DNA from: an uncultured cyanobacterium | GTDB lineage: Bacteria; Cyanobacteriota; Cyanobacteriia; Cyanobacteriales; Microcystaceae | Direction of reading: 5' to 3' | Length of the DNA stretch: 64,000 nt | Assembly (NCBI GenBank): GCA_963807635.1 | Contig: CAWEDJ010000073.1 | Coordinates: 1 to 64,000 of the forward strand | Shown: piece by piece, positions 6,006 to 24,587 of the stretch | Layout of the letters: every line of letters begins with the position of its first letter | Numbering within the stretch: the stretch's first letter is position 1 | Notes under the pieces: model-generated | Database searches by the model: none | What the model was told of the DNA's origin: nothing | Seen by the model: the letters and a program-made list of their open reading frames with translations, nothing else | Translations under genes and position numbers: made by a program

Positions 6006-6824
6006 ATGAAACGAAGAGATTTAATTCGCTACACAGGAGCAAGTGTACTGGCCACCCTGGGAACAATGGGAACATCTGCCTTTCGTGCAACCCTTGCCCA
6101 ATCCGCTAATCAATCCCTATCGGTGCAATGGTTAGGCCATAGTGCTTTTCTTTTTTCGGGTAGCGGCATGAAAATTTTGGTCAATCCCTTTCGGACGTTG
6201 GGCTGTACGGCGGGTTATCGCTTACCCAAGGTCAAAGCAGATTTAGTGCTAATTAGTAGTCAACTTTGGGACGAAGGAGCGGCAGAAGGTTTACCTGGTA
6301 ATCCTAAAGTTTTGTTTGAGCCAGGGGTTTATGAAATTAATGGACTAAAAATCCAAGGGGTGCCTTCTCCTCACGATCGCGTTAGTGGAAACCGTTTTGG
6401 CACAAATGTCGCCTGGCGTTGGACTCAGGGCGGTATTCGGGTGGTTCACATGGGAGGAGCGGCTTCCCCGATTTCCGATGAAGCGAAAATTCTGTTGGGA
6501 ACTCCTGATCTGGCCCTCATTCCCGTTGGTGGTGGCCCGAAAACCTATACTCCCGAAGAAGCCAAGCAAGCCATGTTGACCCTGAATCCTAGAGTCATGA
6601 TTCCGACTCAGTATCAAACTGTTGCTTCCGACAAAAAGACCTGTGATTTAGCCCCCGTCAAGAGCTTTTTAGATCTGGTGAAAGAAATGAATCTGAGCTT
6701 TATTAAGGGTAACGAAATGGTACTAAGCCGCAATAATTTACCGAAAAGTGGCACATTAATTCGGGTTTTTAATGAAAAAAGTGTCCTGAAAACGGCAGAA
6801 ATTCCTTCTCCCCCCAAGGCTTAG
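6006..6824 (+). CDS. MBL-fold metallohydrolase-like protein with Tat signal
   Basis: MKRRDLI twin-arginine signal; WLGHSAF, HMGG, IPVGGG and MIPTQY motifs. Confidence 0.8.
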   Translation: MKRRDLIRYTGASVLATLGTMGTSAFRATLAQSANQSLSVQWLGHSAFLFSGSGMKILVNPFRTLGCTAGYRLPKVKADLVLISSQLWDEGAAEGLPGNPKVLFEPGVYEINGLKIQGVPSPHDRVSGNRFGTNVAWRWTQGGIRVVHMGGAASPISDEAKILLGTPDLALIPVGGGPKTYTPEEAKQAMLTLNPRVMIPTQYQTVASDKKTCDLAPVKSFLDLVKEMNLSFIKGNEMVLSRNNLPKSGTLIRVFNEKSVLKTAEIPSPPKA

Positions 6825-10530: not shown

Positions 10531-10621
10531 TCACAATACAGCACTTTGTCGTTAAATTCTTACAGGATAAGGACATAATATATTATGTCCCTACAAAATT
10601 TGGTCTGTCATCACAATGCAA
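10531..10621. repeat. REP/MITE-like family B insertion with palindrome GGACATAATATATTATGTCC(CTACA)
   Basis: Core at 10571-10595, bounded by the 11-bp direct repeat TTTGCTGTTTC (10520-10530, 10622-10632). Confidence 0.7.
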
Positions 10622-10866
10622 TTTGCTGTTTCCCAAGAGACGGTTTCGCCGCGTTTAACCTGCTCGATACTTTCTTTTAATTTTTGACTAAAGGTTTGAT
10701 CAGCAAGAATATCTAGGGTTTCCATTAAGGATTCAAATTTTTGATAGCTCATGGCTGTCATTATGGGTTGACCTTCTTGGGTAATGATTAGAGGTTCTTC
10801 TGTGATGTCTTTGGCAAGATCTAGAAGGCTTTGGTTTGCTTCGGTAAGGGGGATATATTTTGTCAT
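10591..10866 (-). CDS. Phd/YefM-family antitoxin (no adjacent toxin seen; C-terminus altered by repeat insertion)
   Basis: IPLTEANQSL...PLIITQEGQP...MSYQKFESLMETLDIL pattern. Confidence 0.8.
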   Translation of the reverse strand: MTKYIPLTEANQSLLDLAKDITEEPLIITQEGQPIMTAMSYQKFESLMETLDILADQTFSQKLKESIEQVKRGETVSWETANCIVMTDQIL

Positions 10867-11060
10867 TTTTTTATTGCAATTAATTTAGGTTTCATTTTAA
10901 CACAGAGGTTTTGAATAGTCAGCGATCGCGTTTTGAGGTTTGTTTAAGGAAATTGTGGAATTTTCTTGACATTTAACACTTTTCAAGAGAGACGTGTTGT
11001 ATTATGATGAACTCCAAATCTCGTAGATTAATGAAAACTAAGCATTAGGAGTAAAATCGA

Positions 11061-11423
11061 ATGGAAATTATTTTAGCGGCGTTGATTGCTGGCGCGACTG
11101 CGGCGGCGAAGGATACGGCAACTGTAGCGGTTAAGGATGCCTATGAGGGATTGAAGACTTTGCTTAAGAAAAAGTTTGAAAAGGATGCTTTAGCCCAAGC
11201 AATGATTGATGCTAAACCTGAAGATATTAAACAAGCAGAAGGTTTACTAAAAACGAAGATTACCGAAGCTGGGATTGCTCAAGATGATGCAATTGTAAAG
11301 GCGGCCCAAACAATAATGAAACAAGAAGACCCTGAAGGTGCTTCCACTGGAAAGTATGATTTACGAGGTGCGCAAGGAGTTCAACTCGGCGATTATAGTA
11401 CACAAACAAATACTTTTAATTAA
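11061..11423 (+). CDS. Bell-like helical effector with C-terminal RHIM-like amyloid (BASS-type) motif
   Basis: N-terminal IILAALIAGATAAAKDTATVAVKDAYEGLKTLLKKKF; C-terminal YDLRGAQGVQLGDYSTQTNTFN; AGGAG RBS upstream. Confidence 0.75.
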   Translation: MEIILAALIAGATAAAKDTATVAVKDAYEGLKTLLKKKFEKDALAQAMIDAKPEDIKQAEGLLKTKITEAGIAQDDAIVKAAQTIMKQEDPEGASTGKYDLRGAQGVQLGDYSTQTNTFN

Positions 11424-11471
11424 AAATTTAGCTGAGATTTACACCTTGTTTGATTAAGGAGATTTTAGACA

Positions 11472-14400
11472 ATGGAAAACCTAACAGATAATCAAAACAC
11501 CATAGACTTTAAGTATAGTCAAGGGGTTCAGCAGGGTGATAATAACGTCCAAATGAATACCTTTAAGGGAGTTCAGCATGGCGATCATAATACCTAAACG
11601 AATATCTTTTTTGGGGATGATCCTGAAGAGGAAAAACTTAGTGCAACTCTCAATTAAATTTCGCCCTATCTAGGATTAGCCCCGTTTACAGCCAGTAACG
11701 CCAAGGTTTTCTATGGACGAAAAAACTTAATTAATAGTTTATCGAAAGAATTAGAAAAAGATTGTCTAATTTTTCTCTTAGGGGCTTCGGGTAGTGGGAA
11801 ATCTTCAGTGGTTCAGGCGGGCTTAATCCCCAAATTATCTGCTAATTACAAAAGTAATTTTGTTAGCTTTAGCCTAGTTCCTAACAAAAATCCTTTTTTC
11901 TCTTTTCATCCTAAGTTTTCCGATTTTAATTATTCTGAAGAAACTGGTGAAGAAATAGTAGCAAAACCTGATAAAAATCAAGAAAATTATAAACAGACTG
12001 CGGTAGAATATCTAGAAAAAGTTGTCACAACACTGAAGACAAATCCAGAATCTTATTGGTTAATTGTCATTGATCAGTTTGAAGAAATTTTGACGAGAAC
12101 TGAAGCTGAGGAGAGGTTTTTATTTATTCAGTCTTTGGGTAATTTAATTAGTTATCTCAGAAGGTCTGACAATAAATTGGTTAAGGTAATCTTGACTATG
12201 AGGATTGACTTTTTAGACTCTTTTATGCAAGAGTTTCCTGATTTTGTAAATATAATAAACAGCGATGAGAAAAAGCCTTTTAGTTATATTACTCCAATGA
12301 CGGATCGAGAATTGAAGTTAGTCATTAAAAATCCTGCGGCGACTCATGGGGTGCATGTTGATCTAGATTTGATCGAAGAAATTATTAATGATTTTCGGGG
12401 AGAAGCTCGATCTTTACCTTTGTTGCAATATACCTTAGATTTATTGTGGCAGAAGGATGATTTATCGGATAAGCTACTGAATAAAGAAACCTATGAAGGT
12501 TTGGGGAAAGTTGGGGGAGCTTTGCAACAACAGGCCGAAAAAATTTATCAAGATTTTAAAGCTAAGGAGCAAGGAAAACTAGTTGAAGATATTTTTATTC
12601 AGTTAGTTACTATTACGGCGGATGGGACGAGAGTTAGCAAACGAGAAAGTAAGTCTAAATTTACAGGAGAAACAGGAAAAGTTGTTGATGAATTAGTTAA
12701 AAAACATCGTCTCTTAGTTGCTGGTCGTCAGGAAGGCATGGTAGAAATTGCCCATGAAGCTTTAATTGGATCATGGCAAACGTTACAGGACTGGATTACT
12801 AAATATGAAAAGGAACTGATTTTAGAGAGACAATTAAAAGAAGCGGCTCAATCCTGGAAAAAAGATAAAGCGGATGAGAAAAAAACAATTAGTGAGCTTT
12901 GGACTGGCCCTAAGTTGATGCAAGTAAAAGAGGTATTACGGGCAAAATTGGTGACTAAATCAGAGGAGGCTTTAAGGGCTTATTACGGGGATGTAACGGC
13001 TGATTTTATTAAAGAAAGTTGGAAAGAGCATCAACGACGCAAAAAAGCTGAAGCCAAACGTAAACAACGGGAAATTGAATCTGATCTGAGTTTGGCTAAT
13101 TCTCTGGGGCGTTATGCTTTGTCTATCTTTAAACCAGATCGTTCCTTCAATGCCTTAATTGAAGCGATTAAGGCGGGAAAAATTCTCCAGGAACACAACG
13201 CCAAGGATTTGGCAGTGGTTTCAGCCTTGCATAAATCTCTAACTCAAGGAATGGAACGCAATCGGTTAGTAGGACATGAAAATGCTGTTTTGAGCGTGAG
13301 TTTTAGTCCCGACGGTCAGACCGTAGCTAGTGCTAGTGCGGACAAGACAATCAAACTGTGGAAGGTAGAGACGGGGAAAGAACTCCTCACCCTCACGGGA
13401 CATGATAGTTCTGTCCGTAGCGTGAGTTTTAGTCCCGACGGTCAGACCGTAGCTAGTGCCAGTAACGACAGCACAATCAAACTATGGAAGGTAGAGACGA
13501 GGGAAGAACTTCTCACCCTCACGGGAGAAGATGGTGGTTTTAGCGTGAGTTTTAGTCCCGACGGTCAGACCGTAGCTAGTGCTAGTGCGGACAAGACAAT
13601 CAAACTGTGGAAGGTAGAGACAGGGGAAGAACTCCTCACACTCAAGGGACATGAAGATTTTGTCTATAGCGTGAGTTTTAGCCCCGACGGTCAGACCTTA
13701 GCTAGTGGCAGTGGCGACGGCACAATCAAACTATGGAAGGTAGAGACGGGGAAAGAATTCCTTACCCTCACGGGAGAAGCTGGTGTTGCTAGCGTGAGTT
13801 TTAGTCCCGACGGTCAGACCTTAGCTAGTGCTAGTGCGGACAAGACAATCAAACTGTGGAAGGTAGAGACAGGGGAAGAACTCCTCACACTCAAGGGACA
13901 TGAAGATTTTGTCTATAGCGTGAGTTTTAGCCCCGACGGTCAGACCTTAGCCAGTGCCAGTAATGATAGCACAATCAAACTGTGGAAAGTAGAGACGGGG
14001 GAAGAACTCCTCACACTCACGGGACATGAAAATAGTGTCTATAGCGTAATTTTTAGTCTCGACGGTCAGACCTTAGCCAGTGCTAGTGAGGATAGAACAA
14101 TCAAACTGTGGAAAGTAGAGACGGGTACCCTCACCCTCACGGGACATAGATATCATGTCAATAGCGTGGGTTTTAGTCCCGACGGCAAGACCCTCGCTAG
14201 TGGCAGTTCGGACAACACAATCAAACTGTGGAAGGTAGAGACAGGGGAAGAACGCTTCACCCTCACGGGACAGGACTGCCCTGTCTTGAGCGTGAGTTTT
14301 AGTCCCGACAGTCAGACCTTAGCCAGTGTCGGTAATAACAGAACAATCAAACTGTGGAAAGTAGAGACAGGGGAAGAACTCCTCACCCTCACCCTCACGG

Positions 14401-15116
14401 GACATCGTATTCCTGTCAATACTGTGAGTTTTAGTCCCGACAGTCAGACCTTAGCCAGCGTCAGTGAAGACGAGACGATCAAACTGTGGAAGGTAGAGAC
14501 GGGGGAAGAACCCCTCACCCTCACGGGACATGACAGTCTTGTTAATGGTGTGAGTTTTAGTCCCGACAGTCAGACCTTAGCTAGTGCTAGTGATGACAGA
14601 ACAATTAAACTGTGGAATGTGGAGACAGGAGAAGAACTCCTCACCCTCACGGGACATGAAAATAGTGTCAATAGCGTGAGTTTTAGTCCCGACGGTCAGA
14701 CCTTAGCCAGTGCCAGTGCCGACAACACAATCAAACTGTGGAAGGTAGAGACAGGGGAAGAACTCCTCACCCTCACGAGACATGACAGTCCTATCAAGAG
14801 CGTGAGTTTTAGTCCCGACGGTCAGACCTTAGCCAGTACCAGTGAGGACAGCACAATTAAACTGTGGAAGGTAGAGACAGGGGAAGAACTCCTCACCCTC
14901 ACGGGACATGAAGATTTTGTCTATAGCGTGAGTTTCAGTCCCGACAGTCAGACCTTAGCCAGTGCCAGTGCTGACAACACAATCAAACTGTGGGATTTAA
15001 ATTTAGATTCTTTAATGGCGAAGAGTTGTGATTGGGTACGCGGTTATTTAACCAATAATCCCAAGGTCAGCGAAAGCGACAGACACCTCTGCGATGGCAT
15101 TGGCACTAAACAATAA
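11472..15116 (+). pseudogene. NLR-like receptor: tandem amyloid motif + nSTAND1-type NTPase + 14 WD40 repeats; two in-frame TAA (11595, 11655)
   Basis: ATG 11472 with AAGGAG RBS is in frame with ORF 11808; the upstream part encodes SPYLGLAPF...FYGR and Walker A GASGSGKSS; Walker B LIVIDQFEE, LPLLQYTL and EIAHEALI follow. Confidence 0.8.
13258..14997 (+). repeat. 14 highly similar ~126-bp WD40-coding tandem repeats
   Basis: Recurrent GTGAGTTTTAGTCCCGAC...ACAATCAAACTGTGGAAGGTAGAGAC; 14 TIKLW motifs counted. Confidence 0.9.
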
Positions 15117-15154
15117 TTCTCCCCACTTTTTAAGGGGGGCTGGGGGGGATCAAA
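15116..15154. repeat. left arm of 39-bp inverted repeat flanking the DUF559 gene
   Basis: ATTCTCCCCACTTTTTAAGGGGGGCTGGGGGGGATCAAA; 38/39 match to the reverse complement of 15530-15568. Confidence 0.85.
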
Positions 15155-15513
15155 CCTCCAATCGCCTCACAAACACTCTCAAAATTTTCTAACACTTGCT
15201 GATTGGTAAATCGGATAACCTTAAGCCCATAGCTGACTAATCTTTGACTTCTTTCTTGAGCATAATCTTGGCCCTGTTCAGTATAGTGACTGTCCCCATC
15301 TATTTCAATCACGAGTTTAAGCGTTGGACAATAAAAATCAACAATAAAGTGATCAATCGGTCTTTGTCGGAAGACTCTACATTCAAAAGTTCTGAGATAT
15401 TGATGCCACAGTTTTCTTTCGGCGGCAGTCATGTTTTTTCGCAGTTCTTTGGCTCTGGGGATGAGGGCGCGATCGTAGGGTAGATGAAAGTCGCTGTCGT
15501 TGAGGTGTTGCAT
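15130..15513 (-). CDS. DUF559 (Vsr-like) endonuclease-domain protein
   Basis: RAKELRKNMTAAERKLW...FRQRPIDHFIVDFYCP.LKLVIEIDGDSH...GLKVIRFTN. Confidence 0.9.
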   Translation of the reverse strand: MQHLNDSDFHLPYDRALIPRAKELRKNMTAAERKLWHQYLRTFECRVFRQRPIDHFIVDFYCPTLKLVIEIDGDSHYTEQGQDYAQERSQRLVSYGLKVIRFTNQQVLENFESVCEAIGGLIPPSPP

Positions 15514-21473: not shown

Positions 21474-24400
21474 ATGACTACGACTCCCAAAAAGCGCAAA
21501 CGCGGTTTGCCCGTTAAACCAGAGGCATTACGTCTGATGGAAGAAAAAATGCGAGAAAAAGGTTTTAAATTTACTACTCAAGAGAGGATGTATGAAGAGC
21601 TTGCAGAAAAAGCTGGTTTATCTCCAGATACGATCAAAAATGTTTTCAACCCTCACCATGAACGAAATCCTGAAAAAAATACAGTTCAATTAATAGCAAG
21701 TGCATTGGATCTTTATCCTTGGGATATTGTTGAGGATTGGAATCCGCCTGAATCTTCAAGTCGCGTTAAATATACAAGTTCAAAAGTTTATATTCTTAAT
21801 CGTCAAATTTTCCAAGAGATGTTAGATAAACAACGAAGTTTAACTGCCAATCCCTTAGTTAATAAGAATTTTGAAGTATCTAGGTTGTATGTTCCATTAG
21901 GTTTAGTGGAAAGTAAAAAGCAAGAGCGGAGAAAAGATGTTAGTCCTGAAATGGGTTCTCGTTTATATCGTCCTGAAGAATATGAAGTTACTCGGCAATT
22001 TGAAAATGATGAATTTTTAACTGAAGTTTTATTACAGGGGAATAGTCCTAAAAGTCAAGGAAAACGAATTGCTATTATTGGTGAGCCAGGATCGGGAAAA
22101 ACAACTCGGTTACAGCAAATTGCGGACAGACTTTTTAAGGAAAATAACGATAATTTAGTAATTTTGATATCTTTAGCTGATTTACAGGATAAAAACCTAG
22201 ATGATTTTTTATTGAATACTTGGTTGAAAATTGCTCTAAAACAAAAAGAGGCTAGTAAAGAAAGTCAAAATGAATTAATTGAGAAATTTAATAAAGGTAA
22301 TGTCTGGTTATTATTAGATGGACTAGATGAAATTGTGATTGATAGTAATCCTTTATTCTGGGTTAATTCCCAAATTAAGGGATGGATTGAATCAGCAAAA
22401 GTTATTTTGACTTGTCGGGTTAATGTCTGGGAGTCGGGGAATAATTATCTGAGTAATTTTGATATTTATCGGAATTTAGATTTTTCTGAACCGCAACGAG
22501 ATGAGTTTATTTATAAATGGTTTACTGATCGTAATTTAGCAGATCAATTGATTACTGAACTTAATCGGGATGGAAAAGAAAGAATCAGAGATTTAGTTAA
22601 AAATCCATTACGATTAACGCTTGTTTGTTATTCCTGGGAAAATCATCAGGGTTCATTACCTGAAACAAAAGCAGGGCTTTATCAAGAATGTGTAGAAGCT
22701 TTTTACCAATGGAAAGAGGTCTATTTTAAAACGACTATTGCTCAAAGAAAGGCGTTAAATCAAGCACTAGGAGAATTAGCAAAACAGGCCTTAGAACAGG
22801 AATCATCAAAATTCCGTTTAACGAAAAGTTTTATCTCTGACGTTTTAGGAGAATCGGATGAGGGATTATTTAAGCTGGCTTTAGATTTGGGCTGGTTAAA
22901 TCGAGTTGGGGTGGCAGAAGAAAATCCTAATGAACAGGTTTATGCTTTCTTTCATCCTAGTTTTCAGGAATATTTTGTAGCTTATTCAATAACAGATTGG
23001 GATTTCTTTTTACCCCGTGATCACATCGATCAACCTGTAGAAGGAAAAGTCTATCGAATTTTTCAATTTCAGTGGAAGCAGATATTTTTATTATGGCTTG
23101 GTAGATCAGACAGAGAAATCACTAATTTAGAAAAAGATAAATTTATTGAAAAATTAGTAAATTTTGAAGATCACACTTGCGATTTTTATAGTGCTAAAAC
23201 TTATTTCCTTGCTGCAAGTGGTATTGCCGAATTCCGTAATTGTTTGATTGCAGATCAAATAATAAATAACTTAATCATTTTTAGCTTTGGTAGTTTTGAA
23301 GGTAAGGCAATAGCACCAATAGCTGATAATGCAAAGAAAACTTTGCTAGAAACGGATAGTCTTAGATTAGCTCCCTGTTTAAAAGAGTTTTTATGTTCTT
23401 TAGTAGAAAAGTATAATGAAAATAAATCATCTACAGTTTTCTCTTTAATAACAGAGGTTGCTTTTTTTTTAGCACAAATTGATTATACTGATGAATATCC
23501 AATTGACATTTTAATAGATTTCCCAAATGAGAAAAGTATAAAATATTTAACAATAATTGCTCAACGGAATCCTCGAATAATTGAGAATAGCAGATTAAAG
23601 GATTTATTTGAAAATTCGAGAAATGAGTTTTGGCAACCAGCAGCAGCATTAATATTTAGTGAAATTAAAAAATATCAGCAAAAAGCTGTCGAAAAATTAC
23701 AGATTTTAAGAACATCTGTTGATATTGATGAATCAATACGGGAATGGATAAGCATTTTATTGTCTGAGAAGAATTACAACACTAATAGTATTAACAAGAA
23801 TTCACAATCTAGATTTTCATTCGTTAGAGAGACTAATCCAATTAAGTTAATTAATCTAATGAAATTAAGTACAAATCATGTTGGATTTTTTGCTGCATTT
23901 ATGAATTTCAAAGAAATCATTTCTAGATCATCCGTTAAATATCAATTAAAAAAGAAAATATTTATTTTTGCTATTCAATCAGTAAAATCTAATTTTAACA
24001 GTAACTCTTATAAGTTGATGAGTTTAAATTCAAAATTAGTATATGAACTTCTTTGGTATTGTTCAGAAAATTTAAGCTATCCCGAATTTTATAAGGCATG
24101 GCATAATCAGCACAAAATTATCCATCCTGAAATTATAGAAATTTCTCCTTTAGGCAACACAACGATCGCCCAAAACCTAAACCAACAAATACTTGATCTT
24201 CCTTCCCAACTTCAACCCACCGAAAAAACCTATCCTCTCATCATCAACGCCCAATCTCTAGAAGACGAAAACGACAACAGCAGTATTGCCCAAGAACTCT
24301 GCAATCAAATCTATGCGATCGCGTTTCCCGATGACAATATTCCTGAAATTAACAACGCTCCCCAACTCAAACGCCTAATTCCTACCATCAAAAAACAGCT

Positions 24401-24587
24401 AAAAACTAAAAACTTAGCCCTAATTTTTTACAACGGAGAACCCAACGAAACCCTAATCAAATTCTGTAAAAAATTAACTGCTCCAATCCATATCAAATGG
24501 ATTACAGAACAATCTATTAAAATCGGTATTCCTCCCCAAGAAAATTTAGTCAACATTCTACAAAACTGGATCAACCAACTCGACTAA
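21474..24587 (+). CDS. HTH + NACHT NTPase + helical region + C-terminal alpha/beta domain (bacterial NLR-related)
   Basis: N-terminal XRE-like HTH (ELAEKAGLSPDTIKN), YVPLGLVE, GEPGSGKTT, LLLDGLDE, LTCR, NPLRL, FFHPSFQEYF. Confidence 0.85.
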   Translation: MTTTPKKRKRGLPVKPEALRLMEEKMREKGFKFTTQERMYEELAEKAGLSPDTIKNVFNPHHERNPEKNTVQLIASALDLYPWDIVEDWNPPESSSRVKYTSSKVYILNRQIFQEMLDKQRSLTANPLVNKNFEVSRLYVPLGLVESKKQERRKDVSPEMGSRLYRPEEYEVTRQFENDEFLTEVLLQGNSPKSQGKRIAIIGEPGSGKTTRLQQIADRLFKENNDNLVILISLADLQDKNLDDFLLNTWLKIALKQKEASKESQNELIEKFNKGNVWLLLDGLDEIVIDSNPLFWVNSQIKGWIESAKVILTCRVNVWESGNNYLSNFDIYRNLDFSEPQRDEFIYKWFTDRNLADQLITELNRDGKERIRDLVKNPLRLTLVCYSWENHQGSLPETKAGLYQECVEAFYQWKEVYFKTTIAQRKALNQALGELAKQALEQESSKFRLTKSFISDVLGESDEGLFKLALDLGWLNRVGVAEENPNEQVYAFFHPSFQEYFVAYSITDWDFFLPRDHIDQPVEGKVYRIFQFQWKQIFLLWLGRSDREITNLEKDKFIEKLVNFEDHTCDFYSAKTYFLAASGIAEFRNCLIADQIINNLIIFSFGSFEGKAIAPIADNAKKTLLETDSLRLAPCLKEFLCSLVEKYNENKSSTVFSLITEVAFFLAQIDYTDEYPIDILIDFPNEKSIKYLTIIAQRNPRIIENSRLKDLFENSRNEFWQPAAALIFSEIKKYQQKAVEKLQILRTSVDIDESIREWISILLSEKNYNTNSINKNSQSRFSFVRETNPIKLINLMKLSTNHVGFFAAFMNFKEIISRSSVKYQLKKKIFIFAIQSVKSNFNSNSYKLMSLNSKLVYELLWYCSENLSYPEFYKAWHNQHKIIHPEIIEISPLGNTTIAQNLNQQILDLPSQLQPTEKTYPLIINAQSLEDENDNSSIAQELCNQIYAIAFPDDNIPEINNAPQLKRLIPTIKKQLKTKNLALIFYNGEPNETLIKFCKKLTAPIHIKWITEQSIKIGIPPQENLVNILQNWINQLD

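Follow-up and report, generated by a model that had tools for sequence, protein, structure and literature searches.

A Bell/BASS3-type effector and receptor pair in a cyanobacterium, with a doubled receptor-side motif and a probably broken receptor gene

The 64,000-nucleotide stretch considered here (hereafter the window) comes from an uncultured cyanobacterium of the Microcystaceae (GenBank assembly GCA_963807635.1, contig CAWEDJ010000073.1, positions 1 to 64,000 of the forward strand). At positions 11,061 to 15,116 it carries a small gene followed by a large one, whose predicted products share a short motif. We assign this locus, with a probability of roughly 0.8, to the type of Bell/BASS3 effector-receptor pair reported by Dyrka et al. 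(2020, bioRxiv 10.1101/2020.01.06.895854), here with a broken receptor gene. The initial annotation had proposed an amyloid signalling pair formed by a Bell-like effector and a NOD-like receptor (NLR) made of a STAND NTPase and WD40 repeats, the two sharing an RHIM-like motif. The assignment to a Bell-type effector and a STAND-WD40 receptor with an RHIM-like (BASS3) motif holds, although the architecture had already been published by Dyrka et al. (2020). The receptor cannot, on the other hand, act as then proposed in the genome as assembled, since two in-frame TAA codons sever the motif from the NTPase and the GTG codon at 11808, the next possible start, lies behind the Walker A sequence.

The evidence that joins the two genes is the motif itself. 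The 120-aa effector ends in ...YDLRGAQGVQLGDYSTQTNTFN, an ending also written ...GKYDLRGAQGVQLGDYSTQTNTFN, and the receptor is read from an ATG at 11472, on the same strand and 48 bp downstream of the effector gene. Both the tail motif and this start, with its ribosome-binding site and in frame with the listed open reading frame (ORF) that runs from GTG 11808 to 15116, had been recognized before and are borne out by the sequence. Alignment of the last 30 residues of the effector with the first 62 of the receptor, read through its stops, gives a Smith-Waterman score of 56; shuffles of the effector tail, used as the null, score 20.7 on average (standard deviation 4.3), and none of 20000 reaches 56. 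With stops marked by asterisks, the receptor frame reads MENLTDNQNTIDFKYSQGVQQGDNNVQMNTFKGVQHGDHNT*TNIFFGDDPEEEKLSATLN*ISPYLGL..., or, divided into its segments, MENLTDNQNTIDFKYS-QGVQQGDNNVQMNTF-KGVQHGDHNT*TNIF-FGDDPEEEKLSATLN*ISPYLGL.... Pfam and Tandem Repeats Finder agree with the reported order of two tandem motif copies, an nSTAND1 NTPase and 14 WD40 repeats. The second copy is recognizable independently of the first: with copy 1 masked it still scores 48, a value attained by 0 of 500 shuffles.

The doubling is best seen at the nucleotide level. Tandem Repeats Finder reports a 45-bp unit present in 2.0 copies at 11521-11609 with 77% matches, and copy 1 (11520-11564) differs from copy 2 (11565-11609) at 12 of 45 nucleotides. 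Both copies agree in the eight residues that define the motif (G, V, Q, G, D, N, N, F), three of them encoded by synonymous codons, while seven of the differences between the copies fall at variable positions and a further one turns a glutamine codon into a stop (CAA to TAA). From this pattern we read the doubling as a probable 45-bp tandem duplication that diverged under motif constraint before the nonsense change arose; recombination with a diverged allele might also have produced it. The view that a motif doubled on the receptor rather than on the effector deserves attention is strengthened by the relatives. None of 60 neighbouring receptors examined with the masking test has a doubled motif, nor does any of 26 full-length relatives whose N-termini were inspected; these carry one motif copy, followed by the linker TNIFYGDDPEEEK. 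A complex predicted from the 41-aa receptor peptide and two copies of the effector tail (residues 86-120) scored 0.02, against a mark of 0.34, and counts as evidence neither way.

Downstream of the motif region, the receptor frame has the make-up of an NLR-like receptor. The nSTAND1 domain (E value 7.8e-95) begins directly 3' of the second stop and covers profile positions 1-378 of 379, and it is followed by sensor repeats, namely 14 Pfam WD40 stretches. No single ORF, however, joins the N-terminal motif, the P-loop and the repeats, as the frame is interrupted by TAA codons at 11595 and 11655. The initial annotation displayed the first of these but left the second unmentioned, and it passed lightly over the state of the receptor. 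The first stop occupies a position that is Q in relatives, and the second one that is A, T, E or K. GTG 11808 is the first ATG, GTG or TTG past both stops and lies 3' of Walker A, so the ORF listed by the ORF finder would lack the P-loop. Because translation from ATG 11472 ends after 41 residues and no canonical start lies between the second stop and the P-loop, the receptor as assembled is most likely non-functional, either a pseudogene or a protein uncoupled from its motif. The intact effector would then most likely be orphaned, with a sensor body that is untranslated or inactive. Of the 1214 codons, both lesions are among the first 62, and the remaining 1152 are open. A scan for promoters and terminators was uninformative: it gave 9 promoter-like sites, for an expectation of 6.8 +/- 3.1, and the gap between effector and receptor holds no terminator-like site. 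PADLOC found no match to the effector and only repeat-driven or weak matches to the receptor. The features of the locus are collected in Table 1.

Table 1 Features of the candidate effector-receptor locus, in window coordinates (asterisk, stop codon)
Feature	Position	Strand	Basis
Shine-Dalgarno-like AGGAG, 9 nt upstream of the effector start	11047..11051	+	Read from sequence
Predicted Bell-type effector gene, 120 aa, intact	11061..11423	+	ORF; homologs; AlphaFold2 model
Predicted hydrophobic helix at the N-terminus (residues 1-16), MEIILAALIAGATAAA, with glutamate at position 2	11061..11108	+	Alignment consensus; model
Effector-side candidate BASS3 motif GVQLGDYSTQTNTF, in the tail that is disordered in the model	11376..11417	+	Position; pLDDT; likeness to published BASS3
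Shine-Dalgarno-like AAGGAG	11456..11461	+	10 nt upstream of ATG 11472
41-aa leftover ORF, receptor N-terminus to first in-frame TAA	11472..11597	+	ORF translation
Receptor-side motif copy 1, QGVQQGDNNVQMNTF	11520..11564	+	Alignment; tandem repeats; codon comparison
Receptor-side motif copy 2, KGVQHGDHNT*TNIF, at the ancestral position beside linker FGDDPEEEK	11565..11609	+	Same bases as for copy 1
In-frame TAA no. 1, at the conserved motif Q	11595..11597	+	Effector tail and copy 1 both read CAA
In-frame TAA no. 2, two codons upstream of SPYLGL, where nSTAND1 begins	11655..11657	+	Frame translation
Stop-free remainder of the receptor frame, 1152 codons	11658..15116	+	ORF; Pfam
nSTAND1 NTPase domain	11664..12878	+	Pfam
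Walker A GASGSGKS, 5' of GTG 11808	11781..11804	+	Sequence
WD40 array of highly similar repeats, 126-bp unit x 13.7, 81% matches	13272..14993	+	Tandem repeats; 14 Pfam WD40 stretches

The small protein has the properties reported for Bell domains, which are described as helical domains of about 100 aa whose N-terminal helix is hydrophobic and has an acidic residue at position 2 or 3, in proteins of 120-140 aa that have a BASS motif at the C-terminus (Dyrka et al. 2020). At 120 aa, the effector is of this size. Its N-terminus, MEIILAALIAGA, combines a hydrophobic helix with an acidic residue at position 2. An AlphaFold2 model built on an alignment of 30 homologs is all-alpha, with a mean predicted local distance difference test (pLDDT) score of 75 and helices at residues 2-16, 22-38, 43-49, 53-58, 60-70 and 76-89, and it predicts residues 103-120, at pLDDT below 50, to be disordered. 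The homologs of the effector comprise 188 proteins of 66-210 aa (E<=0.001), and those with named sources are nearly all cyanobacterial. In the alignment of 30 of them the N-terminal domain has the consensus MEPISLILAALxAGATAAAKD, while the C-terminal tails are of several unrelated types. The window effector, like a few relatives, starts three residues further in (MEIILAAL...), within what corresponds to the 'MEPIS' region of the relatives, a region named in Ibarlosa et al. (2024, bioRxiv 10.1101/2024.11.07.622273). Moreover, the family includes proteins whose Bell assignment is due to others. The proteins of two loci, L004 and L042, align to window effector residues 1-120 (tblastn E values of 3e-37 and 5e-22, respectively), and their tails occur verbatim, as C03_s056 and C03_s077, in a set derived from the C-termini of Bell proteins.

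The same set leads to the identity of the motif. BASS3 is described as an RHIM-like family of Actinobacteria and Cyanobacteria with the core G-phi-Q-phi-G (Dyrka et al. 2020). The effector core, GVQLG, fits this signature, and the motif stands, as in published BASS3 pairs, both at the effector C-terminus and at the N-terminus of a collinear adjacent NLR. Cluster C03 of the published collection (Dyrka et al. 2021, supplement, PMC8086366) contains the L042 and L004 tails, and many of its members have the form ..KYDV....AKGVQIGDYNTQTNTFN; judged by eye, C03_s044 and other members of this cluster are near the window tail. We infer that C03 is BASS3, because its highest index, s145, equals the size of 145 given for the BASS3 set (Table 1 of that work) and because its members bear the signature. 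BASS3 pairs, one of them from Nostoc punctiforme, are reported to form prions and fibrils, with the NLR side converting the Bell side (Dyrka et al. 2020). On the strength of these sequence likenesses, the locus is best described as a predicted Bell-domain effector with a BASS3 (RHIM-like) motif beside an NLR-like receptor, an architecture already in the literature.

The pairing put forward in the initial annotation recurs in related genomes. A scan of one genome per species yielded 78 loci encoding effector relatives. We retained 60 of them, cyanobacterial and other, with an effector ORF of 100-200 aa and a same-strand downstream ORF of at least 300 aa; the 18 others were dropped for contig ends, fused or truncated effectors, or the absence of such a neighbour. 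In 57 of the 60 loci, alignment of the effector tail with the start of the downstream protein outscores all 300 shuffles, the exceptions being L027, L047 and L075. Across these loci (L003-L080), the downstream proteins are 47 nSTAND1, 9 NACHT, 2 NB-ARC and 1 AAA_35, with one lacking a match. A single effector family bears several unrelated types of tail motif, each matched by its own neighbour. The neighbours of the L004 and L042 effectors are nSTAND1 proteins, and therefore nSTAND1-type pairs are already within the published data, counted there under NACHT or NB-ARC.

The clade of receptors nearest to the window shares the linker ...QTNIFYGDDPEEEKV...SPYLGL; it comprises L006, L012, L091 and the 26 full-length database proteins, all with a single-copy motif. 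A protein search with the read-through N-terminus returned only P0121, a 101-aa fragment on a 1601-bp contig that is 91% identical to the window receptor over the shared linker and the start of the NTPase. Its N-terminal motif is a different one, ..VGGDLIFAPVQ.. before a remnant TQTNIF, and matches the tails of L010, L011, L014 and L017; motif cassettes have therefore presumably been exchanged between otherwise near-identical receptors. L047, from a Nostoc genome bin, has an exact 86-bp tandem duplication (6387-6560, 2.0 copies, 100% identical) that repeats the receptor motif region and shifts the frame, such that its nSTAND1 ORF begins only at LFHFGPND. Lesions exactly in the trigger motif are thus found in 2 of 61 loci, the window and L047, which is suggestive and no more.

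Closer relatives were sought for the state of the stops. Exact search of metagenome contigs with a 47-nt pattern gave no match, and 41 genomes, the window's own included, contained no DNA-level look-alike of the receptor N-terminus, the best effector match being 83% identical. A metagenome scan with the NTPase domain recovered L091 (54% identity), which is an intact pair, and L092 (positions 2-2468; 87% identity), the closest receptor relative found. The L092 contig, at about 5.7-fold coverage, ends before the N-terminus, and its receptor is spread over three frames, breaks that may reflect sequencing error or decay. Over the 130 codons that can be aligned in one frame, the ratio of non-synonymous to synonymous rates (dN/dS) between the window and L092 is 0.24, from 11.7 synonymous and 11.3 non-synonymous differences. 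Given this value and the 1152 open codons, decay of the window receptor, if real, would be recent.

The rest of the genome offers no substitute. It has one Bell gene, and its six-frame translation contains no other BASS3-like motif. Its only other strong nSTAND1 gene, on contig C69 (69796-72900), is a 1040-codon open frame whose N-terminal region of about 250 aa is unrelated to that of the window receptor and is fused directly to the NTPase. Nothing else in this 93.7%-complete assembly is therefore placed to fire the effector, and firing in trans by another receptor of the genome was discarded as an explanation, the C69 gene having neither a BASS3-like motif nor a related N-terminal region.

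Several observations weigh against the assignment or against a broken receptor. The receptor cores, GVQQG and GVQHG, have a polar residue at the fourth position, where BASS3 has a hydrophobic one, and so follow the signature in part. Profile searches, which the initial annotation had proposed as a check, fall short on both sides: Pfam RHIM (PF12721) matches the receptor peptide at 10.4 bits (E value 0.51), below its cut-off of 20, and the effector not at all at E<=1, while HetE-N (PF20701) reaches 13.8 bits with the 120-aa protein (E value 0.075) for a cut-off of 25. In the local Pfam copy, HetE-N is likewise found in none of the 30 aligned family members at E<=0.001; the newer PF20701.5 is precomputed for most among the 120 homolog matches listed. 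Kaur et al. (2021) mention an uncharacterised effector domain with counterparts in fungal HetE proteins, which might be the family of the window effector. No solved structure resembles the effector, as modelled, above background. A Foldseek search of the model against the PDB returned no match at E<=0.001. With VIA-align, the highest Z among 48,161 chains was 5.5, the matches being generic helical bundles throughout, and a sequence profile search of the PDB with the effector gave one chance match (E value 1.8). None of these outcomes speaks for a Bell, HeLo or Babybell fold, and none speaks against one. The stops, for their part, are known from one draft assembly. Contigs of related strains from four public runs span 11595 and 11655 (X1 record 4, X4 record 18), and among the differences listed for them none is at either position, which speaks neither for nor against stops shared by those strains. 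The confinement of the stops to the motif region, with the rest of the frame open, fits very recent decay, and it also fits selection for a body that is still made in some other way. Finally, the reading of the window locus as an amyloid and cell-death pair comes from sequence.

The pair might be fully functional. The TAAs would then be errors of assembly or consensus, or be confined to a minority of cells, and the true product would be a 1214-aa receptor with a two-rung N-terminal motif. The long open frame past the second stop, the end-to-end nSTAND1 match, the dN/dS of 0.24 over the 130 codons shared with L092 and the draft nature of the source (107 contigs, 93.7% complete, 3% contamination) would all suit a receptor in use. 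We nevertheless consider this unlikely, because two independent TAA substitutions inside 60 bp are untypical of short-read assembly error, and because both lie within one read length, so that they presumably derive from real molecules; no sense codon at the stop positions was retrieved from a near-identical strain. If the stops are real, they could also have been selected: the cost of a doubled motif that nucleates by itself, or of the suicide module as a whole, would have led to disarmament at the trigger motif, and the effector and the 41-aa peptide would be kept as remnants or for a new role. The placement of both lesions in the 62-codon motif region, with none in the remainder, the hit to the same region in L047 and the lack of any other BASS3-like motif or Bell gene in the genome are what one would expect in that case. 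However, two cases in 61 loci make no trend, and the 41-aa ORF is backed by a ribosome-binding site only, so that we regard selected disarmament as possible but well short of an even chance.

A different question is what the motif does. It could serve as a homotypic adaptor or docking peptide, bringing the effector to a receptor that has oligomerised, with no cross-beta templating and hence no amyloid signal. Effector-associated domains common to neighbouring genes are described as a general principle of conflict systems (Kaur et al. 2020, PMC7159879), and the amyloid state is predicted here from the motif sequence. This reading appears very improbable to us, as the motif belongs to BASS3, whose members formed fibrils and prions and were cross-seeded from the NLR side (Dyrka et al. 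2020), and as it is short, G/N/Q-rich and disordered in the monomer model. A more speculative elaboration, to which we attach little likelihood, is that the doubled receptor motif formed a two-rung, self-complementary nucleus easing spontaneous firing, much like the nucleus formed by the paired pseudo-repeats of the effector HET-s, and that the resulting autoimmunity was escaped through a nonsense change at the key glutamine. The 41-aa ORF, which is preceded by a ribosome-binding site of its own and encodes one whole motif and the greater part of another, may then yield a free BASS3 peptide that caps or seeds the effector, and the motif cassette, with L047 and P0121 as further cases, would be a hot spot of gain, exchange and loss tuning the firing threshold of bacterial NLRs. 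We retain a Bell/BASS3 pair with a broken receptor as our preferred interpretation.

Based on this interpretation, we propose a mechanism for the intact form of the system. Direct observation covers the motif common to both proteins, the conserved pairing of the collinear genes, the domain composition and the interrupted frame; the steps that follow are modelled on analogous systems. The WD40 propellers of the nSTAND1 receptor would sense a trigger, possibly a bound ligand, whereupon the NTPase would oligomerise and cluster the N-terminal BASS3 motifs into an amyloid nucleus. This nucleus could template the same motif in the C-terminal tail of the 120-aa Bell protein, and the refolding may free the hydrophobic N-terminal helix (residues 1-16) to damage the membrane, leading to cell death by abortive infection or another form of regulated cell death. 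For Bab/Agp (BASS11), it is reported that a Bell-related effector bearing an amyloid motif brings about abortive infection once phage has triggered amyloid signalling, and that helix 1 of this effector is required (Ibarlosa et al. 2024). As to the history of the window allele, the 45-bp tandem duplication probably came first and was held for some time under motif constraint, and the change of CAA to TAA at the key glutamine would have followed later.

The pair sits amid genes of housekeeping type (an M1 aminopeptidase, a formyltransferase and an AAA ATPase), and no mobile-element genes were seen beside it. Upstream, a lone Phd/YefM-type antitoxin gene (window 10591-10866, minus strand; Pfam E value 9.8e-13) lies 148 bp from the aminopeptidase gene, with no space for a toxin gene before the next ORF. 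A gene encoding a DUF559 (endonuclease-like) protein (15130-15513, minus strand) faces the receptor gene in convergent orientation, with 13 bp between it and the receptor stop codon. A second NLR-like gene is found 6 kb downstream (21474-24587, plus strand); it encodes 1037 aa with NACHT, NCC-H and NCAB1 domains and an uncharacterised N-terminal region of about 190 aa, which is without a BASS3-like motif.

At the level of the class the finding is not new: the locus is one more cyanobacterial example of the published Bell/BASS3-NLR class. Its value lies in the allele. It is a natural receptor allele with a tandemly doubled NLR-side motif, of which there is none among 86 relatives, while the repeats treated in the published description are on the effector side. 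Along with the 86-bp duplication of L047, the stops of the window are natural loss-of-function lesions exactly in the trigger motif. Such alleles are ready material for asking how the number of motif copies sets the threshold of nucleation and in what ways a suicide module is disarmed by its host cell. The survey further indicates that most cyanobacterial partners of this effector family are nSTAND1 proteins by current Pfam (47/60).

Among known systems, the closest are the Bell/BASS3 NLR pairs (Dyrka et al. 2020; J Mol Biol 432:6005 as cited in PMC8086366). With them the window locus shares a helical protein of about 120 aa that begins with a hydrophobic helix and is acidic at position 2, a G-V-Q-L-G...Q.N.F motif that stands at the C-terminus of this protein and again at the N-terminus of a collinear downstream STAND-WD40 gene, a cyanobacterial host and WD40 repeats of high internal similarity. 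It departs from them in three respects: the receptor carries two tandem copies of the motif, whereas the passages describing repeats place these exclusively in the Bell partner; two stops interrupt the receptor; and the NTPase is nSTAND1 by current Pfam rather than NACHT or NB-ARC, as is also the case in 47 of the 60 related pairs, those of L004 and L042 included. The Bab/Agp (BASS11) antiphage abortive infection system of E. coli ECOR25 (Ibarlosa et al. 2024) likewise combines a small helical effector, a 'MEPIS'-type helix and a C-terminal amyloid motif common to the N-terminus of the adjacent sensor. Bab, however, has a shorter 'Babybell' domain (about 80 aa) and a different motif, and in our searches of solved structures the window effector has neither a sequence nor a fold match.

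Two-gene systems of EACC1 and a caspase-like partner (Kaur et al. 2020, PMC7159879; bioRxiv 10.1101/2025.11.14.688446) resemble the window pair in that a small membrane-active effector lies 5' of a large sensor, and nSTAND1 is said to occur in some of them (PMC8195603). EACC1 is, however, activated through proteolysis by its partner, and the window pair has no protease. EACC1 was rejected as the effector family, there being no Pfam match to it and its partner logic being a different, protease-based one. The fungal NWD2/HET-S and PP-motif (HELLP/PNT1) pairs are alike in principle, in that an NLR N-terminal motif templates the C-terminal motif of a pore-forming helical effector. The mammalian RHIM (RIPK1/RIPK3), PP and BASS3 have the G-phi-Q-phi-G core in common (Dyrka et al. 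2020). The globular domains of the fungal and mammalian systems show no detectable homology to those of the window, where Pfam RHIM also stays below threshold. Lastly, HET-S bears two pseudo-repeats on the effector, whereas at the window locus it is the receptor that carries the doubled motif.

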